From assembly GCA_964577785.1 (NCBI GenBank), contig CAZOAK010000003.1:1-48952 (forward strand): 48,952 nt of DNA, in the 5' to 3' direction. This DNA is from an uncultured Candidatus Saccharibacteria bacterium. GTDB taxonomy: Bacteria > Patescibacteriota > Minisyncoccia > Phycocordibacterales > CAIRYW01. A program made the translations under genes and the position numbers. Each line of letters begins with the position of its first letter. Position 1 is the first letter of the stretch. Positions 27,099 to 45,526 of this stretch are shown piece by piece. Below the pieces are notes generated by a model. It was not told where the DNA came from, did no database searches, and worked only from the letters and a program-made list of their open reading frames with translations.

Positions 27099-27121
27099 GC
27101 ACCGAGGCTTTGCCTCGGTGC
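27099..27121. terminator. GC-rich hairpin terminator between typA and truB
   Basis: GCACCGAGGC / TTT / GCCTCGGTGC followed by ATTTATT. Confidence 0.7.
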
Positions 27122-27150: not shown

Positions 27151-27906
27151 TTAATTCAATATGTATTTTCCAACCTTCGTTCTCTTGATCGAATACGCGA
27201 GTGCTGGAACTCCAAGATTTTTACCCAAATTATGTGCGAGTGAACGCATATATGTTCCACTACTACAACTGACTTTTATCTTAACAATTCTGTAGGGGTC
27301 CAACCCCTGCAGATTTTGTTGCCACAGATCCAAAATCTCGCTTTGGCGAAATACTCCTTTCACTCTTCCTATTCTCTCGTTTATTTCTTTCAATAAAATT
27401 TCTGAACTAATTTCTCTTTCTTCTAACATTTCAATATCAAAAATCTCAACTTCTTTAGTCGGCATTGTTTCTGGTAGCTCTCCTTTATTTGCCAATTCAT
27501 GTAATTGAACACCATCTACAGTTTTAGATGAATATGCTGGATACTCCTGAACAAACTTCCCTTTAAATTTTTCTAATTCCCTTTCAATCTCTGAATTTTG
27601 AATTATACTTTTTACTTTTTCCTTTTGACTTTTTACTTTCCCCAAGATGTCGTATGTATCCGACTCAAATCCAGACAGAATTTCCACTTCATATTCTTTA
27701 TCCAATCCTAAATACTTGCCCTTGTTTTTACATTCCTCCCCTACAAGAACCAAAAGTACCCCCTCTGCCATTGGATCAAGTCTTCCAGCATAAGTCATTG
27801 GTATCAAGGGGTCCAACCCCTGGATGACACGAAAGCGCTCCATACATTCAAGCGGTGTTTCGCCTATTTCCTTGTTTAAAATAAATAATGATTGTGTTTC
27901 TGCCAT
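27151..27906 (-). CDS. truB: TruB-family tRNA pseudouridine synthase
   Basis: AGRLDPMAEGVLLVLVGEE (catalytic Asp motif). Start trimmed to MAETQS. Confidence 0.65.
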   Translation of the reverse strand: MAETQSLFILNKEIGETPLECMERFRVIQGLDPLIPMTYAGRLDPMAEGVLLVLVGEECKNKGKYLGLDKEYEVEILSGFESDTYDILGKVKSQKEKVKSIIQNSEIERELEKFKGKFVQEYPAYSSKTVDGVQLHELANKGELPETMPTKEVEIFDIEMLEEREISSEILLKEINERIGRVKGVFRQSEILDLWQQNLQGLDPYRIVKIKVSCSSGTYMRSLAHNLGKNLGVPALAYSIKRTKVGKYILN

Positions 27907-27927
27907 ATATTGATAAAATACACTAAT

Positions 27928-28908
27928 ATGGAAGAAAAACAAAATAAAGTAAGCATTGATAGCTACAAAGGAGTTCGAGATTTCTATCCTGAGGATATGG
28001 CAATCCAGAATTATATTTTTGACACATGGCGCAAAGTTGCTAAAGAATTTGGTTATGTTGAATATGGAGCATCAATTTTAGAATACGCAGACTTATACAA
28101 AGCCAAAGGTGAACGAAACGAAGAGATTGTAAATGAACAAATGTATACATTCACTGATAAAGGTGACCGTGAAGTTGCACTTCGTCCTGAAATGACTCCA
28201 ACACTTGCACGAATGATTGCTGCAAGGCGCAAAGGCCTGAAGCTACCTTTGAGATGGTTCTCAATACCAAACTGTTTTAGATATGAACGAACACAGAGAG
28301 GTCGCAAACGAGAACATTGGCAATTGAATTGTGATCTTATGGGAGTTACTAAAGATTTTTCCGCAACAGGTGCAGATGTTGAAATAATTTCACTTTCATA
28401 CAAAATTATGAAGGAATTTGGAGCAAATGATGAGGATTTTGTTATTAAAATAAATAGCAGAATCCTGTTGCAGGAGCAAATAGGTGACAAACTTTTAAAC
28501 AAAGATCTCTATCCAAAAGCAATGAGACTTCTCGATAAAAAGGACAAAATAGAAAAAGATGAATTTGATAAAGCATGGAAGGAAATTTCTAATGAAAATT
28601 TTGAAATTAATTTTGAAGCAAATAATAAAATTAATACACTAATAAATGCATTAGGAAAAAACGGAGTAAACAATGTTATATACGACCCAGTACTGACAAG
28701 AGGATTTGATTATTATACAGATGTAGTATTTGAAGTCTTTGATACAAATCCAGAAAATTCTCGTTCCCTATTCGGTGGTGGTCGCTATGATAATTTACTT
28801 GAAATGTTTGGTGTTGAACCACTTCCTACCGTTGGATTTGGTATGGGAGATGTGACAATCAGAGATTTCCTTGAAACTCACAAGCTCCCTCCATTCAATT
28901 CAAAATAG
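27928..28908 (+). CDS. hisS: histidyl-tRNA synthetase catalytic core, with no anticodon-binding domain
   Basis: GVRDFYPED, RPEMTPTLARM, FRYERTQRGRKREHWQ, GGGRYDNL and GFGMG. The ORF stops about 15 aa after motif 3. Confidence 0.85.
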   Translation: MEEKQNKVSIDSYKGVRDFYPEDMAIQNYIFDTWRKVAKEFGYVEYGASILEYADLYKAKGERNEEIVNEQMYTFTDKGDREVALRPEMTPTLARMIAARRKGLKLPLRWFSIPNCFRYERTQRGRKREHWQLNCDLMGVTKDFSATGADVEIISLSYKIMKEFGANDEDFVIKINSRILLQEQIGDKLLNKDLYPKAMRLLDKKDKIEKDEFDKAWKEISNENFEINFEANNKINTLINALGKNGVNNVIYDPVLTRGFDYYTDVVFEVFDTNPENSRSLFGGGRYDNLLEMFGVEPLPTVGFGMGDVTIRDFLETHKLPPFNSK

Positions 28909-30312: not shown

Positions 30313-30348
30313 AAAACTGCACCGCGCCTTAAGGCGCGGTGCAGTTTT
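30313..30348. terminator. 36-nt perfect palindrome, bidirectional terminator
   Basis: AAAACTGCACCGCGCCTT/AAGGCGCGGTGCAGTTTT between convergent genes. Confidence 0.8.
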
Positions 30349-30397: not shown

Positions 30398-33349
30398 CTA
30401 GATATTTATACTTTTTCTCAACTCACAGTACTCACAATCTTTCTCATCACAACCTTTGAGCAAAAATTCACCAGACATTATTTCTTCAAACACATTTTCT
30501 ATTTCTGACTTAAGCTCAGTAACCATTTCACTAGTTAATTCAAATGTATGCGCCACCCTTTTAGCATTATCATCTCTCTTAACGAAATTTATTTGCCCAC
30601 TATTTACATGCACTTTATTATCCATTAGTTCAAGAAACATTTTATAGAATGTTATCTGTCTGAGATAATTTTGGTCTGAATTCTGAGTTTGCCCCATCAC
30701 CTCGTTACGAGACTTGGGTTTGCCGGTTTTAAAATCAATTACAAAATAACTCCCACTCTTTTCGTCCACTCTATCCACGTAACCTTTGATAAAAATATTA
30801 TAATTTTGACCATTATATTCAAATGGATATTCATGCTCTAATTTGTACTCCACTTTGTAAAGCTCATCATCAGATAAACCATTATTAGCTACAAAATCAA
30901 GCAGTTCAGGTTTATATTCCTTGAGCACACTTTTTCTTTCTCTATCTTTTATTGCTTGCTGATTCATAAGTCTCTCAAATATCACATAAAACATCTCTGC
31001 CGTATGTTCTTTTTTGCGAAGTACTAAATTCCAATATTCCTCTAACGCATCATGAGTGACATTACCAACAAACAGACTCAGATTCTGAGCAAACGGAAAT
31101 CGGAGGAGATTATTAAATAAATATTTATTTGAACATTGTAAGAAATTATTTAAAGCACTGACTGAAAATGATTGCGACAAGAATAAATCTCGATAGAAAT
31201 CAATCTTATCTTTTGGTATTATTTCTTCAGTGAATTTTAGTGATGCTTTCTTTTCAATATCTACACGTTCAATTAGGTCCGTCCTTATTTCACCTATAAA
31301 TCCTGACTCCTCATTCTCCCGGCCATCAATTTTAAACTTGGGGAATGTTAGTTCTAAATGTTTCTTGGCACGAGTCATGGATACAAAGAGTAATTTACGT
31401 GCGTCCTCTAGATTACTTTCTGACTTACCCTGACTTAAAAGTGTGTCAATATTAATAAAATTAGATCTATGTTTTGATTCACCCCAATCACTATTTGTCA
31501 CATTAACAATAAATACGTTATCAAACTCAAGCCCTTTGGATTTATGAGCAGTCATCAAATTCACTCTCGATTCACCAACATCTTTTGGTATCGTCACCTT
31601 CATGTCATATTCAATAGCTTTATCCAGAAAGTTTTTGAAAGATTTTATATTTGCATTTTCATCTTTTGTCACAACCTGTTTTGCCATATCCGCAAAAGAC
31701 CGTAATATTCCAAGTTTATGATTTAACACCACTCCATCAGAAGTTTTGAGATAATCAGTCTTTCGCGCAAACTCTTCAACAAGTAGTACCGGACTATTTT
31801 TTAAAGCAAAATCTGATAAATATTTTATTTTTCCTACTACACCCTTTATTTCCTCATCTTCAGATTCTGATAGTACCTCAAAGTACGACTTACTGCTCAA
31901 AGCAAAATCTTTGTTTATTTTATGAACCTTATCGATACTAATATTAAACACGCTACTGCAAAGTATCCGAGCAATGCTTTCATTATCATAAAAATCATTC
32001 AGTAGCTTTATTGTAGTCACAAATTCGATTGCAGATCGATCAGAAAAGAGTTCATTGTCATTATGGGTAGTGTATCTGATATTCAAGAGGTCCAACGCTC
32101 TAGCAATATTATCTTTTTCCTTATTTTGTCTGTATATTATTGCGATGTCTTCTGTATCACTATTTTCTATAATTTCCTTAACTCTCATTCCAATGTATTC
32201 GGACTCACTATCTTTATCATATAGAGAAACAAACTTTATTTTACCCGAACCAACATCTCTACCCTCTGCTTTAAGATTATTTTTATTAATCAACAAATCC
32301 GCTCTTTTTGATATCAAATCAAAAGAATAGTCCAAAATATTTTGGTGTGACCTATAATTTACTTCAAGATTAATTCTTTTGGCACCTTCATATCGTTTTT
32401 CAAACCCAGTAAAGTTCTCAAGTGTTCCTCCCTGGAATCTGAATATTGCCTGCTTCTCATCACCTACCACCATAATATTTGGCTTGTCTATAATATTAAA
32501 CATGTCCAATATTTTATTCTGAGATTCGTTCGCATCTTGATGCTCGTCAGCTAAAATAAATTGATATTCCTCTGCAATTTCAAATTGTAGGTCTTTCTCC
32601 TTTTCTACTTTTTTGACCACTTCATTTATAACATCATCAAAATCATAGTGTCTGAGCTTATTTTTTTTGCTCTCATAAATCTCATAGACTTCTACAATCT
32701 CCCTCATCTTTTCTACCATTTTAAATTTTGGTTTTGCCTCACTTTTTATTTCACCTTTTGTTTTACCTCGAGTTGAAATATTATCTGGATCATTTTTAAT
32801 ATTATCCTCGTATATATCAATAAGCTTTCCCAACTTTTCAGGATCTATGAACTCACGTTTTAATTCCTTGATGTAATTTATGATATTTTTAATCTGGAAA
32901 TATGGACTAAATGTAGATTTAATTCTTTCAAAATCACCATTATCAATTATCTCCTCAAACAATGTTATCGAGTCATCTTCATTTATAAACCTGAAGTTAT
33001 TAAACTCTGCAAAATAATCATTGTATCGTCGCAGGATTTGTTCAGCAAAAGAATGATATGTAAATATATTAACCTTTAAAGCATCGCTTCCGATTATCTC
33101 TCGAAGCTTGTCTTTCATTGCCTTAACCCCAGACTCAGTAAAAGTAAGCGCCAGAATCTGCTCTGGACGAGTATCGGTCTCAATTAGAATATTGGCTATA
33201 CGAAGTGTTAAAAGCGTTGTCTTACCAGTACCTGGCCCTGCCACAACCATCACTGGTCCATATATAGTATCCACCGCCTCCTTCTGGGATTTGTTTAATT
33301 CACTGTATTTATCTTTAAATTTATTTTGAAAAATTTCACTCGTAGCCAT
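30398..33349 (-). CDS. UvrD/PcrA-type SF1 helicase fused to a PD-(D/E)xK nuclease with a Cas4/AddB-like Cys cluster
   Basis: VVAGPGTGKTT, LADEHQD and MTAHKSKGLEF in the helicase part. C-terminal DRVDE..VIDFKTGK, with LQCSNKY plus CDEKDCEYC (C..C-x4-C-x2-C). Confidence 0.85.
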   Translation of the reverse strand: MATSEIFQNKFKDKYSELNKSQKEAVDTIYGPVMVVAGPGTGKTTLLTLRIANILIETDTRPEQILALTFTESGVKAMKDKLREIIGSDALKVNIFTYHSFAEQILRRYNDYFAEFNNFRFINEDDSITLFEEIIDNGDFERIKSTFSPYFQIKNIINYIKELKREFIDPEKLGKLIDIYEDNIKNDPDNISTRGKTKGEIKSEAKPKFKMVEKMREIVEVYEIYESKKNKLRHYDFDDVINEVVKKVEKEKDLQFEIAEEYQFILADEHQDANESQNKILDMFNIIDKPNIMVVGDEKQAIFRFQGGTLENFTGFEKRYEGAKRINLEVNYRSHQNILDYSFDLISKRADLLINKNNLKAEGRDVGSGKIKFVSLYDKDSESEYIGMRVKEIIENSDTEDIAIIYRQNKEKDNIARALDLLNIRYTTHNDNELFSDRSAIEFVTTIKLLNDFYDNESIARILCSSVFNISIDKVHKINKDFALSSKSYFEVLSESEDEEIKGVVGKIKYLSDFALKNSPVLLVEEFARKTDYLKTSDGVVLNHKLGILRSFADMAKQVVTKDENANIKSFKNFLDKAIEYDMKVTIPKDVGESRVNLMTAHKSKGLEFDNVFIVNVTNSDWGESKHRSNFINIDTLLSQGKSESNLEDARKLLFVSMTRAKKHLELTFPKFKIDGRENEESGFIGEIRTDLIERVDIEKKASLKFTEEIIPKDKIDFYRDLFLSQSFSVSALNNFLQCSNKYLFNNLLRFPFAQNLSLFVGNVTHDALEEYWNLVLRKKEHTAEMFYVIFERLMNQQAIKDRERKSVLKEYKPELLDFVANNGLSDDELYKVEYKLEHEYPFEYNGQNYNIFIKGYVDRVDEKSGSYFVIDFKTGKPKSRNEVMGQTQNSDQNYLRQITFYKMFLELMDNKVHVNSGQINFVKRDDNAKRVAHTFELTSEMVTELKSEIENVFEEIMSGEFLLKGCDEKDCEYCELRKSINI

Positions 33350-33355
33350 GTAGGC

Positions 33356-33364
33356 ATTATATCA
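33356..33364 (-). promoter_or_regulatory. extended -10 element (TGaTATAAT) 6 nt upstream of the helicase ATG, giving a possible leaderless transcript
   Basis: The minus strand reads TTTGATATAATGCCTACATG. There is no Shine-Dalgarno sequence. Confidence 0.3.
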
Positions 33365-33373
33365 AATTACTGT

Positions 33374-33399
33374 TTTATCGGACATCCGACGTCCGATTA
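33374..33399. repeat. REP-1 palindromic element, copy 1
   Basis: TTTATCGGACATCCGACGTCCGATTA. The stem is ATCGGAC/GTCCGAT with a 7-nt loop. Its last 3 nt are the RAYT-1 stop codon. Confidence 0.8.
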
Positions 33400-34110
33400 C
33401 TCCATGGTCAAGCGCACAAACTCAGCGTCACCATTTTTCTTTTCCCATTTACCACTAAGAATTACATCTCGAGAAAAAGATTTAAAACTTTTTTCACTAA
33501 AAATCTCTCCCAGAATATCTTTGTCTATTATAGGTGACAAATTTTCTTGATACACACTGTAGTCAGCGAAACTTGAAAATTCATAAGTTTTTGCCCACTC
33601 CCAGGCATCATTAAAATTTTTTTGTGCACCTTTCAGTCCCCCTTTTGGATATAGTTCAAAAGTGTTTTTGACCATAATATAAATTGCGAGATACCGCAGA
33701 TATATATCTTCCTCGATAGTTCTACCTCTATACCCTCCTTGAAAAATACTTCCCTTGCTTTCATATTTTTCATTAAAATGTTTGCTCATGCTACCTCCAA
33801 TTTTTTTCATAAATTTTGCAATTCCGCCTTCCTGTATCTCTTTAAGAATAAAATGAAAATGGTTTGGCATAAGTGTGTAACAAAGTATCTTAACTATAGG
33901 TTTACGCTCTTGCCAATTAGCAGGCCATTCGAATGGATTTAAACCTTCAATATCTTTCTCCCACCAATCATGATTATGCTTATCATTCATGTAATATAAA
34001 AGGTGCAGAAAACGCGATTTGTCAGATTGGTCGCTGGTAATCTCCAAACCTCGTCCACCGCGCTTTATTACATGGATATAATTATTTATTGTAAAAGGTT
34101 CAACTCTCAT
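33397..34110 (-). mobile_element. RAYT-type HUH/Y1 (IS200-like) transposase homologue 1
   Basis: YIHVIKRGGRG, LMPNHFHFILKE (HUH) and YLAIYIMVKN (Tyr motif). The start could also be 34137. Confidence 0.75.
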
Positions 34111-34127
34111 AAGCTTATTATACACCC

Positions 34128-34151
34128 TTTCGGACATCCGACATCCGGTTA
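34128..34151. repeat. REP-1, degenerate copy 3
   Basis: TTTCGGACATCCGACATCCGGTTA. Has two substitutions in the 3' arm relative to the consensus and overlaps the alternative ATG of RAYT-1. Confidence 0.6.
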
Positions 34152-34229
34152 AAATATTAGCGCACAAGTAATCCTTGTAATTAAGAATTTCTTAATTTCT
34201 AAACTTTTTTTGTGCCCGCGGATTTTATC

Positions 34230-34255
34230 TTTATCGGACATCCGACGTCCGATTA
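34230..34255. repeat. REP-1 palindromic element, copy 2
   Basis: 26/26 identical to copy 1. Its last 3 nt are the stop codon of the 1138-aa gene. Confidence 0.8.
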
Positions 34256-37200
34256 GGATGCTAGCTCTGGGGTCGGTTCTGGGGCTTGTTCGGGTTCCGG
34301 TGTAGGATCTGGTGTTAGTTCTGGCAGAGGTTCAGTTTTAGGAGTAGGATCAGGTTCAGATGTTGGTTCTTCTTCAAGTTCCGCTACTTCTGGATCAGGT
34401 TCTGGTTCAGAAGTTGCTTCTGGCTCCGGTATTGGTTCAGGATCTGGAGAAGGGCTAGGAGTAGTAATTGTCTGTCCAGCATTTTGGAGAAGAGAATCAA
34501 GTTGTGATTTTGTGATACATGTCTCTCCACTATCCTCATTACCTACACAGAGAGTTTCTTGATGAGAGGTATTAGCGAAGAAGTGTTGAATTCCATTCTC
34601 AGCACTTGCTAGCCACTCTGTTACATGCCTGTAAACAGAATCAAAGAAACTTTCAGCAAAAGAAATTGATGCAGGAGTACTTAATGCTGTAGATGATGCA
34701 ATAGTATTTAAATTAAGACTAATTGCTTTGATACCAAGAAGTGCGATTCCAGCCGGATCAATTGTTGAAATAGCGGTGTCAGATCCACCAAGTCCAAATG
34801 TAGCAAAAAAATCTTGTGCCATAGGACCTATATGCATAGTGTCCTGTGTTTCGGATTTGTAATTCCACTGTGTTATTGGTAACGTACTTATTTTTTCTAA
34901 AATAGAATTCTCATCTACTTCTTGAAAATTTTCTTTTAGATTTCTATCCGAAGCATTAGTCCAAGTTCCCCCAGTTGTTACGTATGCACCAGAAGCGAGA
35001 CTTAGAGGTCCTAGGTATGGAGTGGTGGTACCGATGCCGACGTTGCCAGCACTCGAAACAACCAAAGTATCTCTCCCAGATCCACTAATAACGCTAAACA
35101 ATGTACGGTCCTTTAAAGGATTTGATACTGTACCACCTCCACTATACACACCATCAACAGTAATTGAATTAGAAGTAATTGCTGTAACATTAAAAATTCT
35201 TCCTTCAAAACCAATAGCAGATCCAGGTTGATAATGCGCTCTTAAATCAGCAGATGTTGTAAAAGTACTTTGACCGTCTACACTTGTGACTGTACCTGCG
35301 CTCACCGTATCAGCAAGACTTCCTTTTACACTTAAAACATTTTTTATTGAAGTTGATGCGACTGACGCATCAATAACGTTTACATAACTATCCCAACCAC
35401 TACCAACACCAATATGAATTCTAACATCTGACCATGTTGATCCAACAGAATCTGCGTAGAGTCTCATACCGGTATGATCCTGAAGATTACCTCCAAAACC
35501 AGTATCCGTACCCAATTGAAGAGAATTTCTAGCTGCATCTGTGGGTCCCATGTACCCAATACCAATACCACCTCCACTTATAGAAAGTTTAGTGGTTGGA
35601 CTAACTGTACCGATACCGACGTTGCCCGTATTAAGAATCGTCATTCTTTCTATGGGTGTATTAGGAGTACTCGCTGTAAACACAGAGACACCGGAAGGTA
35701 CTACCGCAATCGCAGCACCACCTGATGAACCAGATTGATAACTGTTATACAAATTGGAAGTCAAAGCAATTCCTTGCCCAAAGTACCAATCTTGTATTTC
35801 TCCCCAACTGTCAACATTACCGCCTGTCCGAATTTTGTATGCTGTATTTGAATATGATCCCGCACCGCCTCGAATAACACCCAAAACATCCAGAGGATGT
35901 GCTGGGCCTACCGTTCCAATCCCCACATTCCCTCCGTTAGTTACAATAAGTTGAGTTGCAGTTGAAGAGCCGACGACAAAGGATGGTCCTGAAATTCCGT
36001 TTGGATTTACTGAGAGTAGTCCCCACGGAGTTGTGGTGCCAATGCCGACGTTGCCATTAGACCCCACAACCATTCGAACTAATCCAGATTGGCTCTTGAT
36101 TTGCAAGTCATTTGAACCGTTTGGTTTCAATAACAAAGGACCATCTGTCTGAGTCGCTTTACCCAACCATATCCCGGCCTGCATATCCTCAAACCCAGAC
36201 TGCTCCGGAGAAACACGCAGGATTCCTGTTTCGTCATTCTGTCCACCGAGCATGGCGACACCACTAAGCCAATAACTATTATTTGCATAGACTTTGTTTA
36301 TTCTATTGCCACTAAATGAACCAATTTCATAAGTACCAGCTACACTTGGAATAATATTCCCTCCCAAATTAATTTGCCCGTTATCTAGAATTGAAAAATT
36401 TTCTACGTTACTTGAATTTGCAACTACAAGTGCCCTATCTGTACCCGTTCCACTTCCTGTGACCGCGAATTTTGCAGATGGTGTAGTTGTCCCGATGCCA
36501 ACGTAACCGTTTTTATTTATCCTCATCACTTCGTTTAAATACCCTCCATCTGCTGTGCTAAAAACTAAGTCTGTAGGAACAGTTAAATTACTCCCTCCTG
36601 ATTGAATAGCCTTAATGGAAGCACCATTTTGGAAATAGTCGCCACCATTTCTTACACCGTAAAAATTAATCGCTCCCAAAACTTCATTAATAATTGTTGT
36701 ACCCGACAATGATCCATTTGTATTTATAGAATTATTATGAGACTTAGTAAAGGACAAAGATGAAGTATTACTTGAGTCAGATGAGTAACTAGCAATAATA
36801 ACGCTAGAATCTGATGCTGACTTAGTGATATCTAAATTGCCTGTAGGTGCTGTGGTCCCAATCCCCACATTCCCCGTATTGTAATAAATATCAGAACCAG
36901 AACTCGTCCACTGACTTGATATATTACTCGCCCACTCTGTAGTACTAGCTGTTAGAGGAATGACATATCCATCTTCTAGAGTAAGTGCGAGAGTACCAGA
37001 TGTTTCAATAGGTCCACCAGAAACAGAGAGACCTGTAGGTGCGGACATATCAATACTTGTTACAGTTCCTTTGGGTGAATTATCAGAAGTTTTGTAAATA
37101 CTTTCTGATGTTCGATATTCTGATCTGTTAATTAAACTCTTGAGATATTCAACTGTCGAAGCATTCATTGATATTAATTCTGTACGGAGAGAGTCTACGG

Positions 37201-37669
37201 AACTTGGGACATACACTGGGTATGAAGATCTCTCGATAATCCTCTCAGTGATTGTGTTTGTTCCAGGTAGAACCTGTGTACTTGGTTTAGAAACAACAGG
37301 TTGAGTTGAGGTTGCATTTGGACTTGCAATGTTTTTAGAAAATAAAGGAACAAAGTAATCAGAGAGTCTATCAAGAAAGTTTGAGAGGACTCCGCCAGCG
37401 CTAGCTGTTTGGCTAGAAGTATTTTTAGTAGCTACCACTCTGACAATGACATCGCTCCAGAAATCTGCAGTCCGAAGAATTGAATATTCCGCTGATTCTA
37501 AGATTTCATTACCTATATCTGTATAGAAAGTGATAATATCTGAGACAGGATTGTAGGCATTACCTGCATGAACGTTAATGGGTAGAGACGCGAAAAATAG
37601 TAAGGAAATATAAAAAATAATTGTGCGTGAAAAAACTCGCATTTGGAGTAATTTTACCATAGAAAACAA
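34253..37669 (-). CDS. secreted tail-fibre-like repeat protein with a peptidase-S74 intramolecular chaperone domain and a Pro/Glu-rich tail
   Basis: Signal-like MRVFSRTIIFYISLLFFASLPINVHA. Six G(N/Y)VGIGT(T/V)xP repeats. SDRNLKEN..WNYK..HIGPMAQDF..L.LN matches S74. The start may be 37642. Confidence 0.85.
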   Translation of the reverse strand: MFSMVKLLQMRVFSRTIIFYISLLFFASLPINVHAGNAYNPVSDIITFYTDIGNEILESAEYSILRTADFWSDVIVRVVATKNTSSQTASAGGVLSNFLDRLSDYFVPLFSKNIASPNATSTQPVVSKPSTQVLPGTNTITERIIERSSYPVYVPSSVDSLRTELISMNASTVEYLKSLINRSEYRTSESIYKTSDNSPKGTVTSIDMSAPTGLSVSGGPIETSGTLALTLEDGYVIPLTASTTEWASNISSQWTSSGSDIYYNTGNVGIGTTAPTGNLDITKSASDSSVIIASYSSDSSNTSSLSFTKSHNNSINTNGSLSGTTIINEVLGAINFYGVRNGGDYFQNGASIKAIQSGGSNLTVPTDLVFSTADGGYLNEVMRINKNGYVGIGTTTPSAKFAVTGSGTGTDRALVVANSSNVENFSILDNGQINLGGNIIPSVAGTYEIGSFSGNRINKVYANNSYWLSGVAMLGGQNDETGILRVSPEQSGFEDMQAGIWLGKATQTDGPLLLKPNGSNDLQIKSQSGLVRMVVGSNGNVGIGTTTPWGLLSVNPNGISGPSFVVGSSTATQLIVTNGGNVGIGTVGPAHPLDVLGVIRGGAGSYSNTAYKIRTGGNVDSWGEIQDWYFGQGIALTSNLYNSYQSGSSGGAAIAVVPSGVSVFTASTPNTPIERMTILNTGNVGIGTVSPTTKLSISGGGIGIGYMGPTDAARNSLQLGTDTGFGGNLQDHTGMRLYADSVGSTWSDVRIHIGVGSGWDSYVNVIDASVASTSIKNVLSVKGSLADTVSAGTVTSVDGQSTFTTSADLRAHYQPGSAIGFEGRIFNVTAITSNSITVDGVYSGGGTVSNPLKDRTLFSVISGSGRDTLVVSSAGNVGIGTTTPYLGPLSLASGAYVTTGGTWTNASDRNLKENFQEVDENSILEKISTLPITQWNYKSETQDTMHIGPMAQDFFATFGLGGSDTAISTIDPAGIALLGIKAISLNLNTIASSTALSTPASISFAESFFDSVYRHVTEWLASAENGIQHFFANTSHQETLCVGNEDSGETCITKSQLDSLLQNAGQTITTPSPSPDPEPIPEPEATSEPEPDPEVAELEEEPTSEPDPTPKTEPLPELTPDPTPEPEQAPEPTPELAS
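34709..34951 (-). other. peptidase-S74 (endosialidase-type intramolecular chaperone) domain region
   Basis: The Ser of SDRNLK is encoded at 34949-34951, 232 residues from the C-terminus. Confidence 0.7.
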
Positions 37670-37751
37670 TAGTTTTTTAAGATTTTGGGGTGGGGATAAC
37701 TAAATTTGAAGTAAAGGTAAAAAGTGGGTAGTAAAAAATTGATTATAAAAA

Positions 37752-37784
37752 ATAGTTGTAGGTAGTCCGACCTCCTACAACTAT
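37752..37784 (-). terminator. intrinsic terminator downstream of RAYT-2
   Basis: ATAGTTGTAGG / 11-nt loop / CCTACAACTAT. The minus strand follows it with UUUUUAUAAUC. Confidence 0.6.
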
Positions 37785-37812
37785 TCAATAGTCAATCGAG
37801 CAAATTCTTCTG

Positions 37813-37841
37813 AATTTGGCGAGGTTTAACCTCGCCAAATT
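37813..37841. repeat. REP-2 palindromic element, copy A (29-nt perfect palindrome)
   Basis: AATTTGGCGAGGTT-T-AACCTCGCCAAATT. Ends 1 nt before the RAYT-2 stop codon. Confidence 0.8.
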
Positions 37842-38522
37842 TTAAATTCTAAACGATTCCTCGCTATTTTCCATCCAAAAATCCATCATTTTATCAAACT
37901 TTTTAACATTTTCAAAATACTTTGGGAACTCTTCCCTATTTAGTATTTGATTCTCAAGTCTCTCCTCACCTAAATAATCCATGTAGCTTGAGTATTTAAA
38001 TTCTTTAACAAACTTCTTGGCTTTAAATATATTTTCGATTTTTTTATTTTTCCAACCTTTATCAATAATTGCTATTGAGTTTAAATGTATATATGAATAA
38101 GAATATTTGAGATAGATATCAGAGTCAATATGTTTTGCTTTAAAAGTCCCCGCAAAAAGAGCTCCGCTTCTTTTGTATTTTTTATTAAAATACATTGTAT
38201 ATGCTGTTGAAAGTTTTTGCATAAATAATGATATGCCACCTTCAACATTCTCCTTAATCAAAATATGAAAATGATTTGGCATCAGACACCATACCCCAAT
38301 AGACACCAGCCGTTGCCCACGATCCATTTTTATAATCTTTTCAAGAGACCACTCGTCATGAGAATGTTTCGACAATTCAAAATTATTTTGAGAATTAGAA
38401 ATAAACAAAAGACAAACAAATCTTTCATAATCTCGCACATCTGAAAAAATAATTCTTTTATCAACACCTCGATTATAAATGTGATAATATTCATTCTCCG
38501 AAATTTTAATTTTTCTGGACAT
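37842..38522 (-). mobile_element. RAYT-type HUH/Y1 (IS200-like) transposase homologue 2
   Basis: YYHIYNRGVDKR, LMPNHFHILIKE (HUH) and YSYSYIHLN (Tyr motif). Confidence 0.75.
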
Positions 38523-38551
38523 GTTTTAGTTAATTGGGTTAGGAGATTGCT

Positions 38552-38570
38552 GGCGAGGTTTAACCTCCCT
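38552..38570. repeat. REP-2, copy B (one mismatch)
   Basis: GGCGAGGTTTAACCTCCC, about 30 nt upstream of the RAYT-2 ATG. Confidence 0.65.
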
Positions 38571-38598
38571 TAAGTTAATTATTTCACGTAATATCAGG

Positions 38599-38621
38599 AT
38601 CCACAACCTTTTGTTGTGGAT
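38599..38621. repeat. separate 9-bp perfect hairpin
   Basis: ATCCACAAC / CTTTT / GTTGTGGAT. Confidence 0.5.
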
Positions 38622-38630
38622 TAAAGGTTT

Positions 38631-38649
38631 GGTGAGGTTTAACCTCGCC
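38631..38649. repeat. REP-2, copy C (one mismatch)
   Basis: GGTGAGGTTTAACCTCGCC. Confidence 0.65.
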
Positions 38650-38668
38650 AATTTTTTATCATAACAAC

Positions 38669-38701
38669 AAACAGCACCGCGACAAAGTCGCGGTGCTGTT
38701 T
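38669..38701 (-). terminator. rpoD terminator
   Basis: AAACAGCACCGCGAC / AAA / GTCGCGGTGCTGTTT. Confidence 0.7.
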
Positions 38702-38743
38702 AAATCTATCTTTTTACTTCTTACTTTTTCCTTTTTATTTTCT

Positions 38744-40015
38744 TTAGTAATTTCTCAAACGAGAGACTTTTTCGTGGCCTCGGATTTTATCTAGGGCTTT
38801 TGCTTCAATCTGTCGGATACGCTCTCTTGTCACTCCAAAAGTTTTACCTACTTCTTCAAGTGTGTGTTGAATACCGTCCATTAGTCCGTGACGCATTTCA
38901 AGAATTCGGCGTTCCTTTTCTGAAAGATCATTTAAAATTTCTTTAACTTGATCACCTAGAATTTTTTGTGAAGTTTCTTGATCCGGAGAAGGAATCTTTT
39001 CATCTGCAATAAAGTCTCCGAACGTTGTTTTGTCATCCCCATCATCTCCTACCGGAGTATCAAGTGATACTGTCGCTTGATCAATCTTTTCTATTTGGTA
39101 TACCTTATCTACATCAAGACCCATCTCAACCGCAATCTCGTCAGGCATTGGATCACGTCCGAGATCTTGTGAAAGTCTTCGTACAACTTGTTTGTATTTA
39201 GCAATTGTTTCAACCATGTGCACAGGTACTCTAATTGTTCTTGATTGATCAGCAAGCGCACGAGTGATTGATTGTCTAATCCACCAAGTAGCATATGTAG
39301 AGAATTTATAACCTTTAGTCCAATCAAATTTATCCACAGCTTTAAATAGACCAAGATTCCCTTCTTGAATTAGATCGAGTAGAGTTAGATCCGCACTTCG
39401 TCCCACATACTTTTTAGCAATAGATACCACAAGGCGAAGGTTTGCTTTAGCCAAAAGATTTTTTGCCTCTTCATCGCCAAGTTGAATTCTCCGGGCAAGA
39501 TCCTTTTCCTCTCCTGCATGAATTAGAGGATACTGTCCAATCTCTTTTAGGTACATTTGAATAGAATCGTGTCCCTCACCTTTACCTCCTGCATATTTTT
39601 TCAAAAATTCATCTTCGTCAGTATGAACTTCTAAAAGTCCTCCTCCTTCCAAAATATCAACTCCAGATGAACTGAATTTCTCATATAGTTCATCAAGGAA
39701 CATCACATCGTCTTCAATAGTCGGAAACTCCTTCAAAATATCATCGTAAGTCACGAATCCGCGAGCCCGTCCTTTTATCAAAAGATTTTCAAGCTTTTTA
39801 CCTGCATCTTCTTTCTTGGCAGCAACCTTCTTTGTGATTGGCTTTGGTGCTTGTTTAACTGACTTTTTTGCCACCTTATTCTTGGCTGGTTTTGCTTTTT
39901 TAACTACCTGCTTTTTCGCCACCTTTTTTTTGGGCTTACTTTTCAATACTTTCTTGACTACCTTTTTGGCGGGTTTTTTAGATTTGGACACTTTTTTTGT
40001 TATTTTCTTTTTCAT
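38744..40015 (-). CDS. rpoD: primary sigma-70 factor with a Lys-rich N-terminal extension
   Basis: Regions 2-4 are recognisable ([50 protein letters not shown]). Confidence 0.95.
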
Positions 40016-40058
40016 ATTAATAAAATTTTTGATAATTATTTTTAAATTTAATCATCTT

Positions 40059-41744
40059 TTAAGTTGATTTATATTTATCATTGAGTTTTGATAGTTTTAA
40101 AGACACTTCTTGGCAATGCTTTAGCTCATTTTCAATACCAATCATATCATGGATTGATTCAAGTTTTTTGAGTCTTTCCATAGTTTTGGTGAAATCTTCT
40201 TTCAAAACATCTTCTTCAAAATGATGCAAAAGTTCCCGTCCGACCAACGTAACATCTTTTGTATCTCCATACTGTATTTCTATTTCAAATAATAATTTAT
40301 TCCTTTCGTCCTCACCCTGTGGTATTAAAGTTTCAAAATCTGTATCTATTTCACCCAACTTTTTTTTAAATTCATCTCGATAATTATCTGATTTTGATAA
40401 TAAGTATAAATAGAAGCTGACTGCTTTTGGTACCTTGATTTGATTAGTTCTATTTGGGAGTCTAATTTCATTTTCCTTCACATCCTCATCTTTTATCTTG
40501 TTTAATTCTTCGGTCAAAGCATGTTCACTAATGCCAGAAACAAAACTGGCCTTTTGTAAAAATCTAGACCTGTCTATTGCACTCTGAACATATTTAATAA
40601 GAGGCAAAACTTTTTCTTTTAAAATCTTGTCGGCAAGACCCCTATCTTTTTCCGATTCCATGTTCTGAATAAAATAGTCGATTATATTTTGAGCATTCTT
40701 TATTGCATCACTCCAAATATTCTTATCCTTTGCTATAGCATCTGCAGGATCCAATCCTTGTTGCAAAAAAACAACTTTTGTCTCAAAACCTTGTGACAAA
40801 GCGAGCTTCCATGCACGAAGTGTTGCATTCCTCCCAGCATTATCAGCATCATAAGCAATAACAATTGTATCAGTTAACCTCTTAAGAATTTCTAGATGCC
40901 CAGAAGTTAGAGCAGTTCCTGATGATGCTACGGTATTACTAAATCCTGCCTGATGAGACATCAATAAATCCATCTGACCCTCAACCAAAATAACAAATTG
41001 GTTTTGCTTAATAGAAATTTTTGCAACATTATATCCATATAATGTTTTTGATTTATCAAACAAAGGAGTGTCAGGACTGTTTAGATATTTCGCTTCCTCG
41101 TCCTTTGCATGAAGTATTCTCCCGGAAAATGCAATAACTCGTCCAGCCGTATCAAATATTGGAAACATAATTCTGTCTCTGAATCTGTCGTAACTCTCGC
41201 CTTTTTCATTTTCTTTTATAACACCCGCATCAAGCATCTCTTTATCTGCATAACCCTTTGTCTTTAAATACATTTTCAAAGATCTCCAATCATTCTGTGC
41301 ATATCCAAGCCTCCATGCGCGGAGAGTTTCTATACTTAAATTTCTCTTTTGTAGATATGATAAAGCTTCATTATTATCCTTCAAATTATTTTGAAAAAAC
41401 TTTGTAGTTTCTTCTAAAATATCAAAAATTCTATTGTCTGAACCACCATCCTTACCCTCAAATCTCTCTATAACAACACCAGCTCTGTCAGCAAGCATTT
41501 TAAGTGAAGTTAAAAAATCTACTCCCTCAAATTCCTGAACAAAACTAAAAATGTCACCTTTTACTGCACACCCAAAACAATAGTAACTTTGTCTATCTGG
41601 AGAAATATAAAAAGACGCTGTCTTTTCATGGTGAAAAGGACATTTTGCTTTAAAATTCGCTCCACTTTTTTCAATAGTAATATAAGAAGATATGACATCC
41701 ACTATGCCAAGTCGCTCCTTTATTTTTTGGACTGTTGTTGACAT
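40059..41744 (-). CDS. dnaG: DNA primase
   Basis: Zinc ribbon CPFHHEKTASF..CFGC and the Toprim motifs EGQMD and YDADNAG. Confidence 0.93.
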   Translation of the reverse strand: MSTTVQKIKERLGIVDVISSYITIEKSGANFKAKCPFHHEKTASFYISPDRQSYYCFGCAVKGDIFSFVQEFEGVDFLTSLKMLADRAGVVIERFEGKDGGSDNRIFDILEETTKFFQNNLKDNNEALSYLQKRNLSIETLRAWRLGYAQNDWRSLKMYLKTKGYADKEMLDAGVIKENEKGESYDRFRDRIMFPIFDTAGRVIAFSGRILHAKDEEAKYLNSPDTPLFDKSKTLYGYNVAKISIKQNQFVILVEGQMDLLMSHQAGFSNTVASSGTALTSGHLEILKRLTDTIVIAYDADNAGRNATLRAWKLALSQGFETKVVFLQQGLDPADAIAKDKNIWSDAIKNAQNIIDYFIQNMESEKDRGLADKILKEKVLPLIKYVQSAIDRSRFLQKASFVSGISEHALTEELNKIKDEDVKENEIRLPNRTNQIKVPKAVSFYLYLLSKSDNYRDEFKKKLGEIDTDFETLIPQGEDERNKLLFEIEIQYGDTKDVTLVGRELLHHFEEDVLKEDFTKTMERLKKLESIHDMIGIENELKHCQEVSLKLSKLNDKYKST

Positions 41745-41791
41745 TTAGTTGATTACTTCAATTCAATTTACAAATTTGATAATTGAACCTG

Positions 41792-41824
41792 GGGCAGAAA
41801 TTTTCCTGAAGAAAATTTCTGCCC
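41792..41824 (-). terminator. 14-bp perfect hairpin after rpoC with no clear U-tract, possibly an attenuator or processing site
   Basis: GGGCAGAAATTTTC / CTGAA / GAAAATTTCTGCCC. Confidence 0.4.
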
Positions 41825-41839
41825 ATCACCCTCCCCTAA

Positions 41840-44800
41840 CTACTCAACAAAAGCTTCGTCAGTAAATGTAGCCTTTAAGTCATCAATCATTTTAGCTTTC
41901 TCGCTACCTTTGAATCCTGAACCAGCAGGAATAAGTCTTCCAAGAATAACGTTCTCCATAAGTCCTTTGAGTTCGTCTTTTGCACCTTCAACTGATGCTT
42001 GAATAAGTACACGAGTAGTGTGTTGGAATGATGCTGCAGACAAGAAACTCTGTCTTGATAGTGACACATCAGTGATTCCAAGTACGATTGACTCACCTTT
42101 TGCTTCCTCTCCTCCATTTGCTCGTACCTTTTCATTTTCTTCATCAAGCTGAGATGATTCTACAGTTTCCCCCACAACAAGTGCAGTATTACCAATAGAT
42201 TTTATTTTTACTCTTGAGAACATTTGGCGAACAATTATTTCAATATGCTTTCGTGACACAGGCTCTCCTTGAAGTTCATAAAGTTTTTTGATTTCACCAA
42301 TGATGTATTCTTCAGCTTTATTCTTTCCAGCATTTTTAAATAGTTCATCAATATCTGCAGAACCGTCAGTTATGACATCACCTTTCTTAACATTGTCGCC
42401 TATTTTTACAAATGGTACACGAATTCTTGGGACCACATATTCGCCATTTTCTTTTTTAGCGAGTTTTTTACCTGTCTTTTCACCAAGTTCTGCTGTAATT
42501 GTAATAATTTTTTCTTTTCCATTATCTTGAATATCTGTAACGACTCCATCAGCATAAGCAACCACCGCAGGAGTTTTAGGTCGTCTCTTTTCAAACACTT
42601 CTTCCACACGAGGAAGACCTTGAGTAATGTCTCCTCCAACTGACGCAGCACCTCCTCCGTGGAAAGTACGCATAGTCAACTGTGTTCCTGGCTCTCCAAT
42701 AGCCTGAGCTGCAACTGTACCGACAGCCTCACCTAAATCAACTTGTTTATTTCTACCAAGATCCATTCCATAACACATTGAACAGATTCCTTCGTGAGAT
42801 TTACATGTCAAAGGTGATCTTACGAACACTTCCTCCACACCAGACTTTTCAATCATCTCTGAATCAAGTCCTGAAAGTAGATGTCCTTTTTCAAATAATG
42901 TTTTTCCTCCTCCATCCTTAACATCATTTAAAAGTACTCTACCTTTAATACTTTTTGAGATTGGTGATTCGATACCTGATGCAGTTTCTTTACAAAGCTT
43001 TATTCCTTCTTTTGTTCCACAATCCATCTGCGTAATCAAAACATCCTGAGCAGCAACGAATAGTCTTCGAGTTAAATACCCCGCCTTTGCAGTGTTCAAT
43101 GCTGTATCGGCTAGACCCTTACGTGATCCATGAGTGTTAATGAAATATTCAATTGGGTTAAATCCTTCTTTTGTAGAAGATAAAATTGGTAATTCCATAG
43201 TTTCTCCAGATGCGTTTTGAATAAGACCTTTCATACCGGCCATCTGAGTAATCTGCGCCGCACTACCTCGAGCACCAGACTTGAACATTGTATAAACTGA
43301 TCCTTTCTTATCTAGATTTTCTAGAACTACTTTTTCTACCTTACTTTTAACTCCGTGCCAAATTTCAATATTTTTTCTTGTTCTCTCTTCTTCTGAAAGA
43401 AGTCCTTCATTGTACTGTCCTGTCACTTCTTCAGATTTCTTTTTTGCATCGTTAATTATATCCTTCTTAACTTCAGGGACTTTGATATCATCAATACCCC
43501 AAGTAATACCAGACATAGTCACATACTTAAAACCAAACGCTTTAACTTTATCCAATGTTTTTGGTAGATTATCAATTCCATAACGAACCATGAGATCATT
43601 CATTATTGAAGCCATTGTCTTCTTATCAACCTCTTTGTTAACAAAAGGATAATCCACTGGCAAAAGTTCGTTAAATAATATTCTTCCGACAGTTGTCTCA
43701 AAGTGTTTATCTCCAATGTCTTTGAACTTTTCTCGCAGACTCTCTTCTTGGGGAGCAATAACAGTTATTTTTGCACGATAAGAAATTTCACGGAAGTTCA
43801 ATGCACAAATAGCACTTTGGAATGATTCGAAATATTTACCTTCACCTTTTTCTCCTTCTACAATTGAAGTCATCCAATAACATCCAAGCACAATATCAAG
43901 CTTGTCCACTGATGCAATCAAATTACCTGATCCTGGCTTTAGAATGTTTTTGTCGGCTGACATAATATTCTTTGCCTCTAACTGAGCTTCAAGTGAAAGT
44001 GGAACGTGAACCGCCATAGTATCTCCATCGAAGTCAGCGTTAAAAGCTGTACATACGAGTGGGTGTACTCGGATAGCACTACCTTCGATAAGTATTGGTT
44101 TGAAAGCCTGGATACCAAGTCTGTGAAGTGTAGGCGCACGGTTTAGAAGTACATATTTTTCTTTGATCACATCTTCTAGAATTGCCCATACTTCTGGAAT
44201 ACCTTCTTCAATAAGTCGAGATGCTCCGCGAATGTTATAAGCTAATTCTTGTTTCAAGATTTCAGCGATAACGAACGGTCGAAACATTTCAAGTGCCATA
44301 TGTTTTGGAAGACCACATTGATTTAAGTCTAGTTCAGGACCAACAACGATTACAGAACGTCCAGAATAATCCACTCGCTTACCAAGAAGGTTTTGTCGGA
44401 ACAATCCTCTTTTACCCTTTAAGTTATCAGAAAGTGATTTCAACACTCTTCTCTGTGCTGCTCCAGCACCAGCATATGCAGCATTCCCATGTCTCTGTGA
44501 ACTATCAATAAGTGCGTCCACCGCTTCTTGAAGAATTCTTTTTTCATTTCGAAGAATTACCTCTGGCGCATGAATTTCTTTTAGTTTTTTTAGACGATTA
44601 TTTCTGTTTATAACTCTTCGATACAGATCGTTTACATCTGTTGTCGCATGTCGTCCACCATCGAGAGCAACCATCGGTCGTAGTGCCGCAGGAATAACAG
44701 GAAGTGCAGTGATAAACATCCATTCAGGTCGAATTCCCGAAGCAAGCATATTTTTTAGTACAGCCAATCTTTTATTTATTTTTTCTCTTTCCTGTGAATT

Positions 44801-45526
44801 CGCTTTATCAATCGCGATTTCTAATTCATCCACAATCTTTTTAAGATCTAAATTCTTAAAAATATTATATACGGCTTCGGCACCAATAGATGCTTCAAAT
44901 ACTGTTCCATATTTCAAAGCGTATTTGTGGTAATGAACTTCGTCTAGAACTTTACCAACTTTGATACTATCTATTTCAACCTTTGTAGAAAGTAAGAGAT
45001 CTTTGATAACCTCTTTTGTTTTGTCATCAGTAATTGTTTTTATTTTTGCCTTAAATTCAGAATCCAAATCGCGAAGTACTCTCTCTTTTTCCTCCTCATT
45101 AACTTTAGTGATTAGATATCCAGCAAAATATACAACCTTCTCAACTTCTGCAGATGAGATTCCTAATACGAGAGAAATTCTAGATGGAATATTTCGGAGA
45201 AACCATATATGTGCAACAGGTGTCGAGAGTTCAATATGCCCCATTCTCTCACGTCGAACAATTGATCTTGTGATTTCTACTCCACATTTTTCACAAACAA
45301 TTCCTTTATATCTTATACCTTTATATTTACCACAGTAACATTCATAATCTCGATCTGGACCGAATATTTTTTCGTCAAATAATCCAGATTTTTCACTTCT
45401 CTGAGTTCTGTAGTTCATTGTCTCTGGCTTTGTAACTTCACCAAATGACCATTCTCTAATTCTCTCAGGAGATGCGACCTGGAGCGTAATGTAGTCAAAC
45501 TTTTTTGATTCTTTTCTTTTTATCAT
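41840..45526 (-). CDS. rpoC: RNA polymerase beta-prime subunit
   Basis: NADFDGD, zinc-binding CYCGKYK..CEKCG and trigger-loop/bridge-helix regions. Confidence 0.97.
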   Translation of the reverse strand: MIKRKESKKFDYITLQVASPERIREWSFGEVTKPETMNYRTQRSEKSGLFDEKIFGPDRDYECYCGKYKGIRYKGIVCEKCGVEITRSIVRRERMGHIELSTPVAHIWFLRNIPSRISLVLGISSAEVEKVVYFAGYLITKVNEEEKERVLRDLDSEFKAKIKTITDDKTKEVIKDLLLSTKVEIDSIKVGKVLDEVHYHKYALKYGTVFEASIGAEAVYNIFKNLDLKKIVDELEIAIDKANSQEREKINKRLAVLKNMLASGIRPEWMFITALPVIPAALRPMVALDGGRHATTDVNDLYRRVINRNNRLKKLKEIHAPEVILRNEKRILQEAVDALIDSSQRHGNAAYAGAGAAQRRVLKSLSDNLKGKRGLFRQNLLGKRVDYSGRSVIVVGPELDLNQCGLPKHMALEMFRPFVIAEILKQELAYNIRGASRLIEEGIPEVWAILEDVIKEKYVLLNRAPTLHRLGIQAFKPILIEGSAIRVHPLVCTAFNADFDGDTMAVHVPLSLEAQLEAKNIMSADKNILKPGSGNLIASVDKLDIVLGCYWMTSIVEGEKGEGKYFESFQSAICALNFREISYRAKITVIAPQEESLREKFKDIGDKHFETTVGRILFNELLPVDYPFVNKEVDKKTMASIMNDLMVRYGIDNLPKTLDKVKAFGFKYVTMSGITWGIDDIKVPEVKKDIINDAKKKSEEVTGQYNEGLLSEEERTRKNIEIWHGVKSKVEKVVLENLDKKGSVYTMFKSGARGSAAQITQMAGMKGLIQNASGETMELPILSSTKEGFNPIEYFINTHGSRKGLADTALNTAKAGYLTRRLFVAAQDVLITQMDCGTKEGIKLCKETASGIESPISKSIKGRVLLNDVKDGGGKTLFEKGHLLSGLDSEMIEKSGVEEVFVRSPLTCKSHEGICSMCYGMDLGRNKQVDLGEAVGTVAAQAIGEPGTQLTMRTFHGGGAASVGGDITQGLPRVEEVFEKRRPKTPAVVAYADGVVTDIQDNGKEKIITITAELGEKTGKKLAKKENGEYVVPRIRVPFVKIGDNVKKGDVITDGSADIDELFKNAGKNKAEEYIIGEIKKLYELQGEPVSRKHIEIIVRQMFSRVKIKSIGNTALVVGETVESSQLDEENEKVRANGGEEAKGESIVLGITDVSLSRQSFLSAASFQHTTRVLIQASVEGAKDELKGLMENVILGRLIPAGSGFKGSEKAKMIDDLKATFTDEAFVE

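Follow-up and report, generated by a model that had tools for sequence, protein, structure and literature searches.

We analyzed a 48,952-nucleotide (nt) contig of an uncultured Candidatus Saccharibacteria bacterium (CAZOAK010000003.1, GenBank assembly GCA_964577785.1); this whole contig is referred to as the window, and in-window repeat counts refer to this contig. On its minus strand, two genes encoding Y1 HUH proteins, RAYT-1 and RAYT-2, lie on either side of a gene for an S74-domain protein, and each Y1 gene is bordered by copies of its own hairpin, REP-1 and REP-2, respectively. We consider it probable that the two Y1 genes belong to separate, independent copies of one kind of compact element, a Y1 gene bounded by hairpins, which is widespread in Patescibacteria (Paceibacteria and relatives). 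This reading is carried by the anatomy of the unit, its recurrence, the covariation of its hairpin stems, its boundaries and the variety of its genomic contexts, all of which were observed directly.

Two Y1 proteins of a RAYT-like family

RAYT-1 (33397-34110, minus strand) encodes a 237-amino-acid Y1 HUH protein of the R1 clade with the motifs NHFH and YIMVKN, and RAYT-2 (37842-38522, minus strand) encodes a 226-amino-acid Y1 HUH protein of the R2 clade with the motifs NHFH and YIHLN. Both passed the Pfam Y1_Tnp gathering cutoff of 23, at 32.3 bits (E = 1.2e-7) and 33.9 bits (E = 3.8e-8), respectively. The proteins were 34% identical over 183 amino acids; the HUH block (TLMPNHFHFILKE / CLMPNHFHILIKE) and the tyrosine motif YI..N were seen in both when aligned. 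An AlphaFold2 model of RAYT-2 (pLDDT 92) was most similar in the PDB, by Foldseek, to 4ER8_A, the E. coli RAYT-REP complex (E = 9e-6), followed by the TnpA proteins of IS608 and ISDra2 (E about 1e-3). The view of a first-pass annotation of this DNA, that the two genes are divergent RAYT-type HUH homologues with a common HUH block and tyrosine motif, agrees with these results.

Pfam Y1_Tnp was matched by all 83 aligned relatives, in which H84, H86, Y144 and N148 were invariant; the tyrosine motif of the RAYT-1 clade, YIMVKN, has one residue more between Tyr and Asn. The family consensus (NHFH, LFQG, YIHLNP and a YSS tail, in proteins of 226-237 amino acids) matches subclass 2.1 of the TnpA-Y1 classification (Quentin et al. 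2018), a comparison made by motif only. Judged from their sequences, both proteins are class-2 (RAYT-like) TnpA-Y1 enzymes with intact catalytic HUH, Tyr and Asn residues, and their activity is predicted.

The family is large: homologs of RAYT-2 made up more than 7,755 protein clusters and those of RAYT-1 made up 613, and nearly all named clusters came from metagenome-assembled genomes of Patescibacteria, Paceibacterota or Minisyncoccia. The RAYT-1 cluster representative begins at the same 237-amino-acid start, and RAYT-1 was 72-74% identical to the Y1 proteins of three collected loci (L005, L007 and L089). Exact-protein look-ups with the rpoD and RAYT-1 products of the window retrieved no other record. 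Relatives were not found in viral contigs (IMG/VR), and a phage origin of the units was rejected on this basis. Patescibacteria carry thousands of genes of this RAYT-like, hairpin-bounded kind.

Hairpins flanking the two Y1 genes in the window

In gene orientation, RAYT-1 and RAYT-2 each have two hairpin copies upstream and one at the stop codon. The three copies of REP-1 (ATCGGACGTCGGATGTCCGAT) are in one orientation, as are the three copies of REP-2 (TTGGCGAGGTTAAACCTCGCCAA). Neither hairpin was present anywhere else in the window, and none was expected from shuffles. The earlier claim that three copies of each hairpin flank their RAYT was borne out by these exact or near-exact copies.

REP-1c (33377-33397, minus strand) is an exact copy that abuts the RAYT-1 stop codon, with TAA followed directly by TCGGACGTCGGATGTCCGA, and constitutes the right end of unit 1; its DNA fold is -7 kcal/mol (z = -3.0), and homology with related units ceases at this copy. 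REP-1b (34129-34149, minus strand), a degenerate promoter-proximal copy with three mismatches, occupies the -35 position. It has no stable fold (z = +0.26) and, judged by what relatives conserve, is the left end of the unit, aligning with the lone upstream hairpin of L005, L007 and L089. REP-1a (34233-34253, minus strand) is an extra, intact and exact upstream copy that abuts the stop codon of the S74 gene and folds at -7 kcal/mol. REP-1 was palindromic as annotated, but the 7-base-pair (bp) stem with a 7-nt loop ascribed to it did not hold; the best fold has an 8-bp stem, including one G.T pair, and the loop TCGGA.

REP-2c (37813-37841, minus strand), an intact 13-14-bp hairpin directly after the RAYT-2 stop codon, constitutes the right end of unit 2; it contains an exact copy at 37818-37836 and folds at -14.5 kcal/mol (z = -8.3). 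REP-2b (38552-38570, minus strand) is a degenerate promoter-proximal upstream copy with two mismatches (-4.5 kcal/mol), and REP-2a (38631-38649, minus strand) is the outer upstream copy with one mismatch (-6.2 kcal/mol). Thus, the promoter-proximal upstream copy has decayed in both units and the outer copies are intact. The GT[AG]G foot was not found in REP-1 or REP-2, whose feet read TAA followed by TCGGAC and AAATTTGGCGAGG, respectively. The hairpins matched no Rfam family, and a known RNA family was rejected on this basis.

An extended -10 box of RAYT-1, TGTATAAT (34117-34124, minus strand), was read from the sequence 6 nt before the ATG, and the RAYT-1 transcript would accordingly begin without a leader. 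Downstream of RAYT-2, an orphan 12-bp hairpin followed by a T-run (37751-37785, minus strand; -10.1 kcal/mol, z = -7.3) is probably the intrinsic terminator of RAYT-2. This hairpin is also R1-like; its core is GTCGGAC, and compared with the R1-type hairpins of L098 and L120 it has 4 mismatches in 25 nt.

Pairing and covariation of hairpins across the family

We collected 175 loci through protein look-ups, one genome scan and one metagenome scan, among which 155 were non-redundant units with both flanks. An exact shared segment of at least 12 nt was sought between the 120 nt upstream of each gene and that gene's own stop region. Such sharing was present in 141 of the 155 units (91%), compared with 2.1% of mismatched flank pairs. 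The proposal that each RAYT pairs with a different hairpin, made from the two window genes, therefore extends to the family.

The hairpin cores were clade-specific, being AGG-5 nt-CCT in R2, which REP-2 fits as TTGGCGAGG-TTAAA-CCTCGCCAA, and GTC(T/A)GAC or GTCGGAT in R1. The outer stems varied by locus yet stayed complementary: positions 4-9 were 86-100% Watson-Crick, with all four pair types represented, compared with 20-39% in shifted controls. For example, three compensatory pair changes separate REP-1 from the hairpin of L007, whose Y1 protein is 72% identical to RAYT-1, and surround a core that is the same in both. This clean covariation over 155 units amounts to a natural mutagenesis table for the specificity between protein and hairpin.

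Among the 141 units, the end copies were direct in 63 and inverted in 50. A copy lay at the stop codon in 84% of units, and at least two upstream copies were present in 24%, as in both window units. In addition, about 17% of units carried an in-frame internal copy approximately 155-175 nt into the Y1 gene (codon ~52-60), which precedes the HUH motif, codes for ..QGxTL.. and changes in concert with the flank copies (L015, L016, L017, L023, L029, L031, L033, L051, L058, L059, L061, L063, L077, L080 and L085); the RAYT-1 and RAYT-2 genes have no internal copy. Upstream of the gene in L022, L055 and L085, we observed arrays of 3-8 local copies, which recall BIME/REPtron arrays. Hairpins were almost never dispersed: only 15 copies more than 400 nt from the gene were found in 1.07 Mb flanking 83 related units, and about half of these were short cores of 13-15 nt.

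Anatomy and relocation of the unit

A typical unit is approximately 0.78 kb long (about 0.75-0.8 kb) and comprises a hairpin, an extended -10 box, the Y1 gene and a second hairpin that begins at or includes the stop codon. In most aligned units, the upstream hairpin spans roughly -55 to -20 and the extended -10 box TGnTAtAAT ends 5-8 nt before the ATG; therefore, the hairpin sits on the -35 position, and we infer a leaderless mRNA.

Homology among window unit 1 and the units of L005, L007 and L089 starts at the upstream hairpin and ends at the downstream hairpin, and the contexts of these units differ (S74/helicase in the window; the prfA/rpsB region or S74/DUF8128 elsewhere). A sharp left boundary was seen again between L150 and L152. 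Among Y1 pairs that were 80-95% identical, 11 of 37 had no homologous neighbor at all, and among pairs that were 65-80% identical the same was true of 82 of 113. The unit of L173 lies on the opposite side of the DUF8128 gene when compared with that of L007. Because homology is bounded by the hairpins and synteny is lost, the unit seems to be a self-contained element of ~0.78 kb that has changed place in the course of evolution. From these comparisons, the Y1 unit appears to relocate as a whole.

The ~0.8-kb unit was found alone beside prfA, rpsB, pilins, Wzy_C, gyrA, rpoB, map and many other genes, and the immediate neighbors of 91 units were similarly diverse (prfA, sigma factors, trmD, S1, gyrA, rpoB, pth, pilins, Wzy_C and LTD proteins). 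As in the window, an R2-type gene directly follows rpoD in L028. L051, L077, L086 and L109 likewise contain two divergent Y1 units within 20 kb, and each of these units has a hairpin of its own. Close relatives of RAYT-2 occur in type IV pilin clusters or beside Wzy_C. An association with pilin clusters was considered and rejected, as N_methyl was found among fourth neighbors in 5/108 and among immediate neighbors in 5/82 and 3/88, i.e., without enrichment.

We assume that a Y1 dimer would bind its own hairpins on single-stranded DNA and would cleave and rejoin the strand beside them, by analogy with E. coli TnpA-REP and IS608 TnpA. If so, the hairpin copies at one locus would stay identical and would now and then duplicate locally, and from time to time the whole unit would be transferred to another intergenic site, in most cases immediately behind a stop codon. 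The enzyme would also repress its own promoter because the candidate binding site sits on the -35 region. Catalysis, autoregulation and transposition chemistry are thus conditional on the analogy with the characterized enzymes.

Several observations weigh against a relocating element of this kind. The inverted end hairpins of 50 units are not predicted by the same-strand peel-and-paste scheme of IS200/IS608, and the R1 motif YIMVKN deviates from the class-2 signature Y---NP. A near-identical multi-copy set was not seen in any genome examined, and paralogs in the same genome carry different hairpins (the window, L013/L073 and L044/L071); therefore, recent transposition is undocumented. The varied contexts could have arisen through horizontal transfer plus recombination instead of transposition. 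Finally, hairpin dispersal was measured only on the 49-kb contig and 1.07 Mb of relatives' flanks.

Comparison with known Y1 systems

The units resemble tnpA-only IS200 elements of the IS200/IS605 family, which are minimal (~0.7-0.8 kb) and consist of a Y1 gene between subterminal hairpins. The hairpins of both window units are likewise on the same strand, no terminal inverted repeat is present, and homologous units occur in unrelated contexts. IS200 has a 5' hairpin that limits expression. However, IS200 TnpA is about 150 amino acids long and carries Y---Q, whereas the present proteins are 226-237 amino acids long and carry Y---N(P); in addition, near-identical multi-copy sets are missing here and 50/141 units have inverted end hairpins.

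Among the TnpA-Y1 subclasses, the nearest is subclass 2.1 (Quentin et al. 2018; Bertels group 1; 'TIRYT'), with which the proteins share NH[YF]H, FQ, Y[IV]HLNP (in the R2 clade) and the SS tail; the median length of this subclass is 238 amino acids, compared with 226-237 for the window proteins. Subclass 2.1 is reported to have terminal inverted repeats and no REP-like structures nearby, whereas the Patescibacteria genes have REPtron-like hairpins. It also has a C-terminal helix-turn-helix (HTH) domain (Bac_DnaA_C, HTH_23 or HTH_28), whereas neither an HTH nor Bac_DnaA_C was matched by Pfam in the C-terminus of the Y1 proteins, even at E up to 5. Candidate Phyla Radiation (CPR) genomes go unmentioned in the subclass 2.1 survey (Quentin et al. 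2018).

The Y1 HUH fold and a gene flanked by its own palindromic hairpins are also features of the RAYT/TnpA-REP systems (E. coli 4ER8; Pseudomonas RAYTs). The genes may represent a classical domesticated RAYT/REP system, i.e., a single-copy, vertically inherited gene serving a dispersed REP/REPIN population that the window is too small to show. The top structural match of RAYT-2 is in its favor, being the E. coli RAYT bound to REP. RAYTs are, moreover, known for low copy number and for several divergent paralogs per genome, each tnpA-REP gene with a private REP family (PMC6006769; PMC5581495). In the present family, too, copy number is low and paralogs are divergent, as shown by the 34% identity of RAYT-1 and RAYT-2. 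The 15 distant copies and the local arrays of L022, L055 and L085 are also compatible with this explanation. In-frame internal copies like those in about 17% of the Patescibacteria units are known from subclass 2.4, the Cyanobacteria/Bacteroidetes RAYTs with in-frame REPs in the gene (PMC6006769); however, the internal REP of subclass 2.4 lies between the HUH and Tyr motifs, whereas here it precedes HUH, and the window genes have none.

Nevertheless, we regard the classical explanation as unlikely, although it is the alternative that survives best. REPs are dispersed in tens to hundreds, whereas on the contig and in the sampled flanks the present hairpins are confined to gene borders, with zero extra copies of REP-1 or REP-2 in 49 kb and about half of the 15 distant copies reduced to short cores. 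The canonical GT[AG]G foot is absent here, although atypical REPs without it are known for subclasses 2.6 and 3, and REPs form REPIN-type inverted pairs whereas the window copies are all direct. The NCBIfam REP_Tyr_transpos equivalog cutoff of 80 was missed by about 50 bits (30.5 and 32.9 bits). Synteny is gone already at 65-95% protein identity, and homology between loci is exactly the hairpin-bounded unit; REPtrons, in contrast, are reported not to move as units (PMC6006769).

A relocating, hairpin-bounded element is therefore our preferred reading. Y1 HUH proteins with cognate hairpins are known from IS200/IS605 and RAYT/REP; the combination of a RAYT-like (subclass 2.1-like) protein with IS200-like unit ends and confined private hairpins appears new relative to these. 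No description of RAYT or IS200 elements in Patescibacteria, CPR or Parcubacteria was found in the searchable literature, and the family of small RAYT/IS200-like elements in Patescibacteria is apparently undescribed. It may represent an evolutionary intermediate between insertion sequences and domesticated RAYTs.

The S74 gene between the two units

The gene between the two units (34253-37669, minus strand) is a 1138-amino-acid open reading frame (ORF) encoding an S74-domain, tail-fiber-like surface protein, as the first-pass annotation had stated. Pfam Peptidase_S74 (PF13884) was matched at amino acids 907-956 (E = 7.8e-12) and PHROG tail-fiber families at E = 5e-21; the protein also contains GNVGIGT repeats and a Pro/Glu-rich tail. 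As listed, the ORF starts at TTG 37669, and an in-frame ATG is present at 37642. A promoter-like site, TTAAAA-18-TAAAAT with an upstream TG (37680-37651), precedes the gene, and its extended -10 box TGGTAAAAT (37651-37659) lies 8 nt before this ATG. Thus, the true start is likely ATG 37642, which would give the signal-peptide-like N-terminus MRVFSRTIIFYISLLFFASLPINVHA, and the position of the box suggests a leaderless start.

We searched for S74 neighbors of the units using Pfam and a four-sequence hidden Markov model. Outside the window, they occupied 3 of about 168 neighbor slots (L007/L008, L089/L090 and L009 only), and S74 was not an immediate neighbor in any of 80 metagenome loci of the RAYT-1 clade. 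S74 enrichment was consequently rejected as a property of the family. Among relatives at least 70% identical to RAYT-1, however, an S74 gene was nearby in 3/4 contexts, immediately upstream in L007 and L089 and two genes away in L173. The S74 proteins of the window (34253-37669), L007 (1-1800), L089 (1-2103) and L173 (1-1926) were compared, the latter three contigs all ending inside S74. They have a common C-terminal layout, consisting of the S74 domain, C..C(I/V)TK.QL and a Pro/Glu-rich tail. Nevertheless, the S74 proteins were only 26-32% identical, whereas the neighboring Y1 and DUF8128 ATPase genes were 70-84% identical; between L007 and L089, identity was about 28% for S74, 84% for the adjacent Y1 and 77% for DUF8128. 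In L173, S74 was equally divergent (31.6%, compared with 71% for DUF8128) although the Y1 unit does not adjoin it, which speaks against the unit as the cause of the variation. It is simpler to suppose that the fiber gene itself evolves fast or has been replaced. What is left of the earlier idea of an S74 link is that S74 genes recur near the closest RAYT-1 relatives and diverge much more strongly than the genes around them.

Within the 83-nt spacer that separates REP-1a from REP-1b, 39 nt (34192-34230, minus strand) resemble the last ~15 codons of rpoD (DKIRGH..; cf. 38746-38792), with 88% identity over 25 nt. This match is the best to the spacer anywhere in the window, and its score of 36 was reached by 2/200 shuffles. 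If this stretch is a relic, unit 1 may once have been directly after rpoD, with RAYT-2, S74 and REP-1a arriving later as a 4.5-kb block.

A wider proposal can be built on these observations, in which Patescibacteria carry a large undescribed class-2 Y1 lineage of autonomous, IS200-like, low-copy ~0.8-kb units whose hairpin would serve as transposon end, as -35 operator of a leaderless gene and as stop-codon context. Units of the RAYT-1 subclade would then mark the 3' boundary of hypervariable S74 genes and could be single-stranded DNA recombination breakpoints for exchanging host-attachment alleles in episymbionts. Taken as a whole, we consider this proposal rather unlikely.

The first-pass annotation had gone further and suggested a possible cassette, in which RAYT/REP pairs mobilize, exchange or regulate S74. 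We weighed this idea with both pairs, or RAYT-1 alone, as the agent and with the hairpins as recombination boundaries for allele swaps. The arrangement in L007/L008 and L089/L090, where S74 is immediately upstream of the closest RAYT-1 relatives and a hairpin abuts its stop codon, together with the low S74 identity of these two loci, speaks for such a cassette. An R2-type Y1 gene in L009 is likewise followed by an S74 protein, the R1-type hairpin at 37751-37785 lies across S74 from REP-1a in the same orientation, and the rpoD-like relic, at the far end of RAYT-2 plus S74, is compatible with insertion of the 4.5 kb in one piece. However, each hairpin family brackets its Y1 gene, no shared hairpin flanks S74, the stem of the orphan hairpin is unrelated, and this hairpin with its T-run is more simply a terminator. 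The unit occurs alone elsewhere, close RAYT-2 relatives occupy pilin and Wzy_C contexts, and the rarity of S74 neighbors and the divergence of the L173 gene also count against the idea. The cassette therefore finds little support, and we judge it distinctly improbable. The S74 gene is a neighbor of the units and not demonstrated cargo; we regard it as a rapidly evolving surface gene of the host that adjoins unit 1 and that adjoins unit 2 as well only in this genome. Accordingly, paired "transposase" genes around a surface gene in these organisms should not be annotated as a composite transposon. The S74 linkage in one subclade could conceivably bear on the host attachment of episymbiotic bacteria.

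It is very improbable that the hairpins are ordinary transcription signals (terminators, attenuators or mRNA-stabilizing stem-loops) that were duplicated locally and are unrelated to the Y1 protein: they do lie at gene starts and ends, their nearly symmetric palindromes can fold on either strand, and those at 37751-37785 and after rpoD look like true terminators, but, unlike generic terminators, the two ends of 91% of units carry the same private sequence, which varies from unit to unit, intact copies have no downstream T-run on the gene strand, the upstream copy, sitting at the -35 position of a gene with a predicted leaderless start, would not be transcribed with that gene, in-frame internal copies co-vary with the flank copies, and the clade cores (GTCWGAC in R1; AGG-5 nt-CCT in R2) follow the protein phylogeny.

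DnaA-box-like sequences beside the units

Between REP-2a and REP-2b lies a palindrome, ATCCACAAC..GTTGTGGAT (38599-38621; -8.7 kcal/mol), each arm of which is one mismatch from the DnaA-box 9-mer TTATCCACA. In the 250 nt before and the 150 nt after Y1 genes, this 9-mer was enriched ~8-fold (13 exact occurrences in 34.9 kb compared with 53 in 1,152 kb), and it often abuts the hairpin (L001, L004, L011, L017-L019, L022, L048, L050, L061 and L077). A DnaA-like C-terminal HTH in the Y1 proteins was considered as the reason for the enrichment and rejected, as Pfam gave no signal at E up to 5 and a profile search against PDB sequences returned weak ISDra2 matches alone.

Genomic setting

From 30398 to 48780, every gene lies on the minus strand, and together these genes form a co-directional block in the order AddA/UvrD-type helicase-nuclease, the module of two Y1 genes and S74, rpoD, dnaG, rpoC and rpoB. 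The helicase-nuclease, rpoD and dnaG were identified by Pfam, and rpoC and rpoB were named from their translations alone. Gene calls and Pfam agree with the previous placement of the module between rpoD and a helicase in a housekeeping block. rpoD has its own canonical intrinsic terminator (38668-38702, minus strand; a 16-bp stem and then a T-rich tail); therefore, the REP-2 copies are not needed for rpoD termination.

The terminator-like hairpins after the helicase (30313-30348) and after rpoD (38669-38701) have a common core, (C/T)GCACCGCG, which the sequence at 27099-27121 (GCACCGAGGC..) resembles. These hairpins may represent a third small repeat family, or the similarity may be due to chance. 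Elsewhere in the window, the GTP_EFTU profile match of a typA/bipA-like ORF (25523-27037) begins only at position 98, its N-terminus apparently being missing, and a hisS-like ORF (27892-28908) is short, at 338 amino acids, and overlaps a minus-strand ORF; both may reflect frameshifts or assembly errors.

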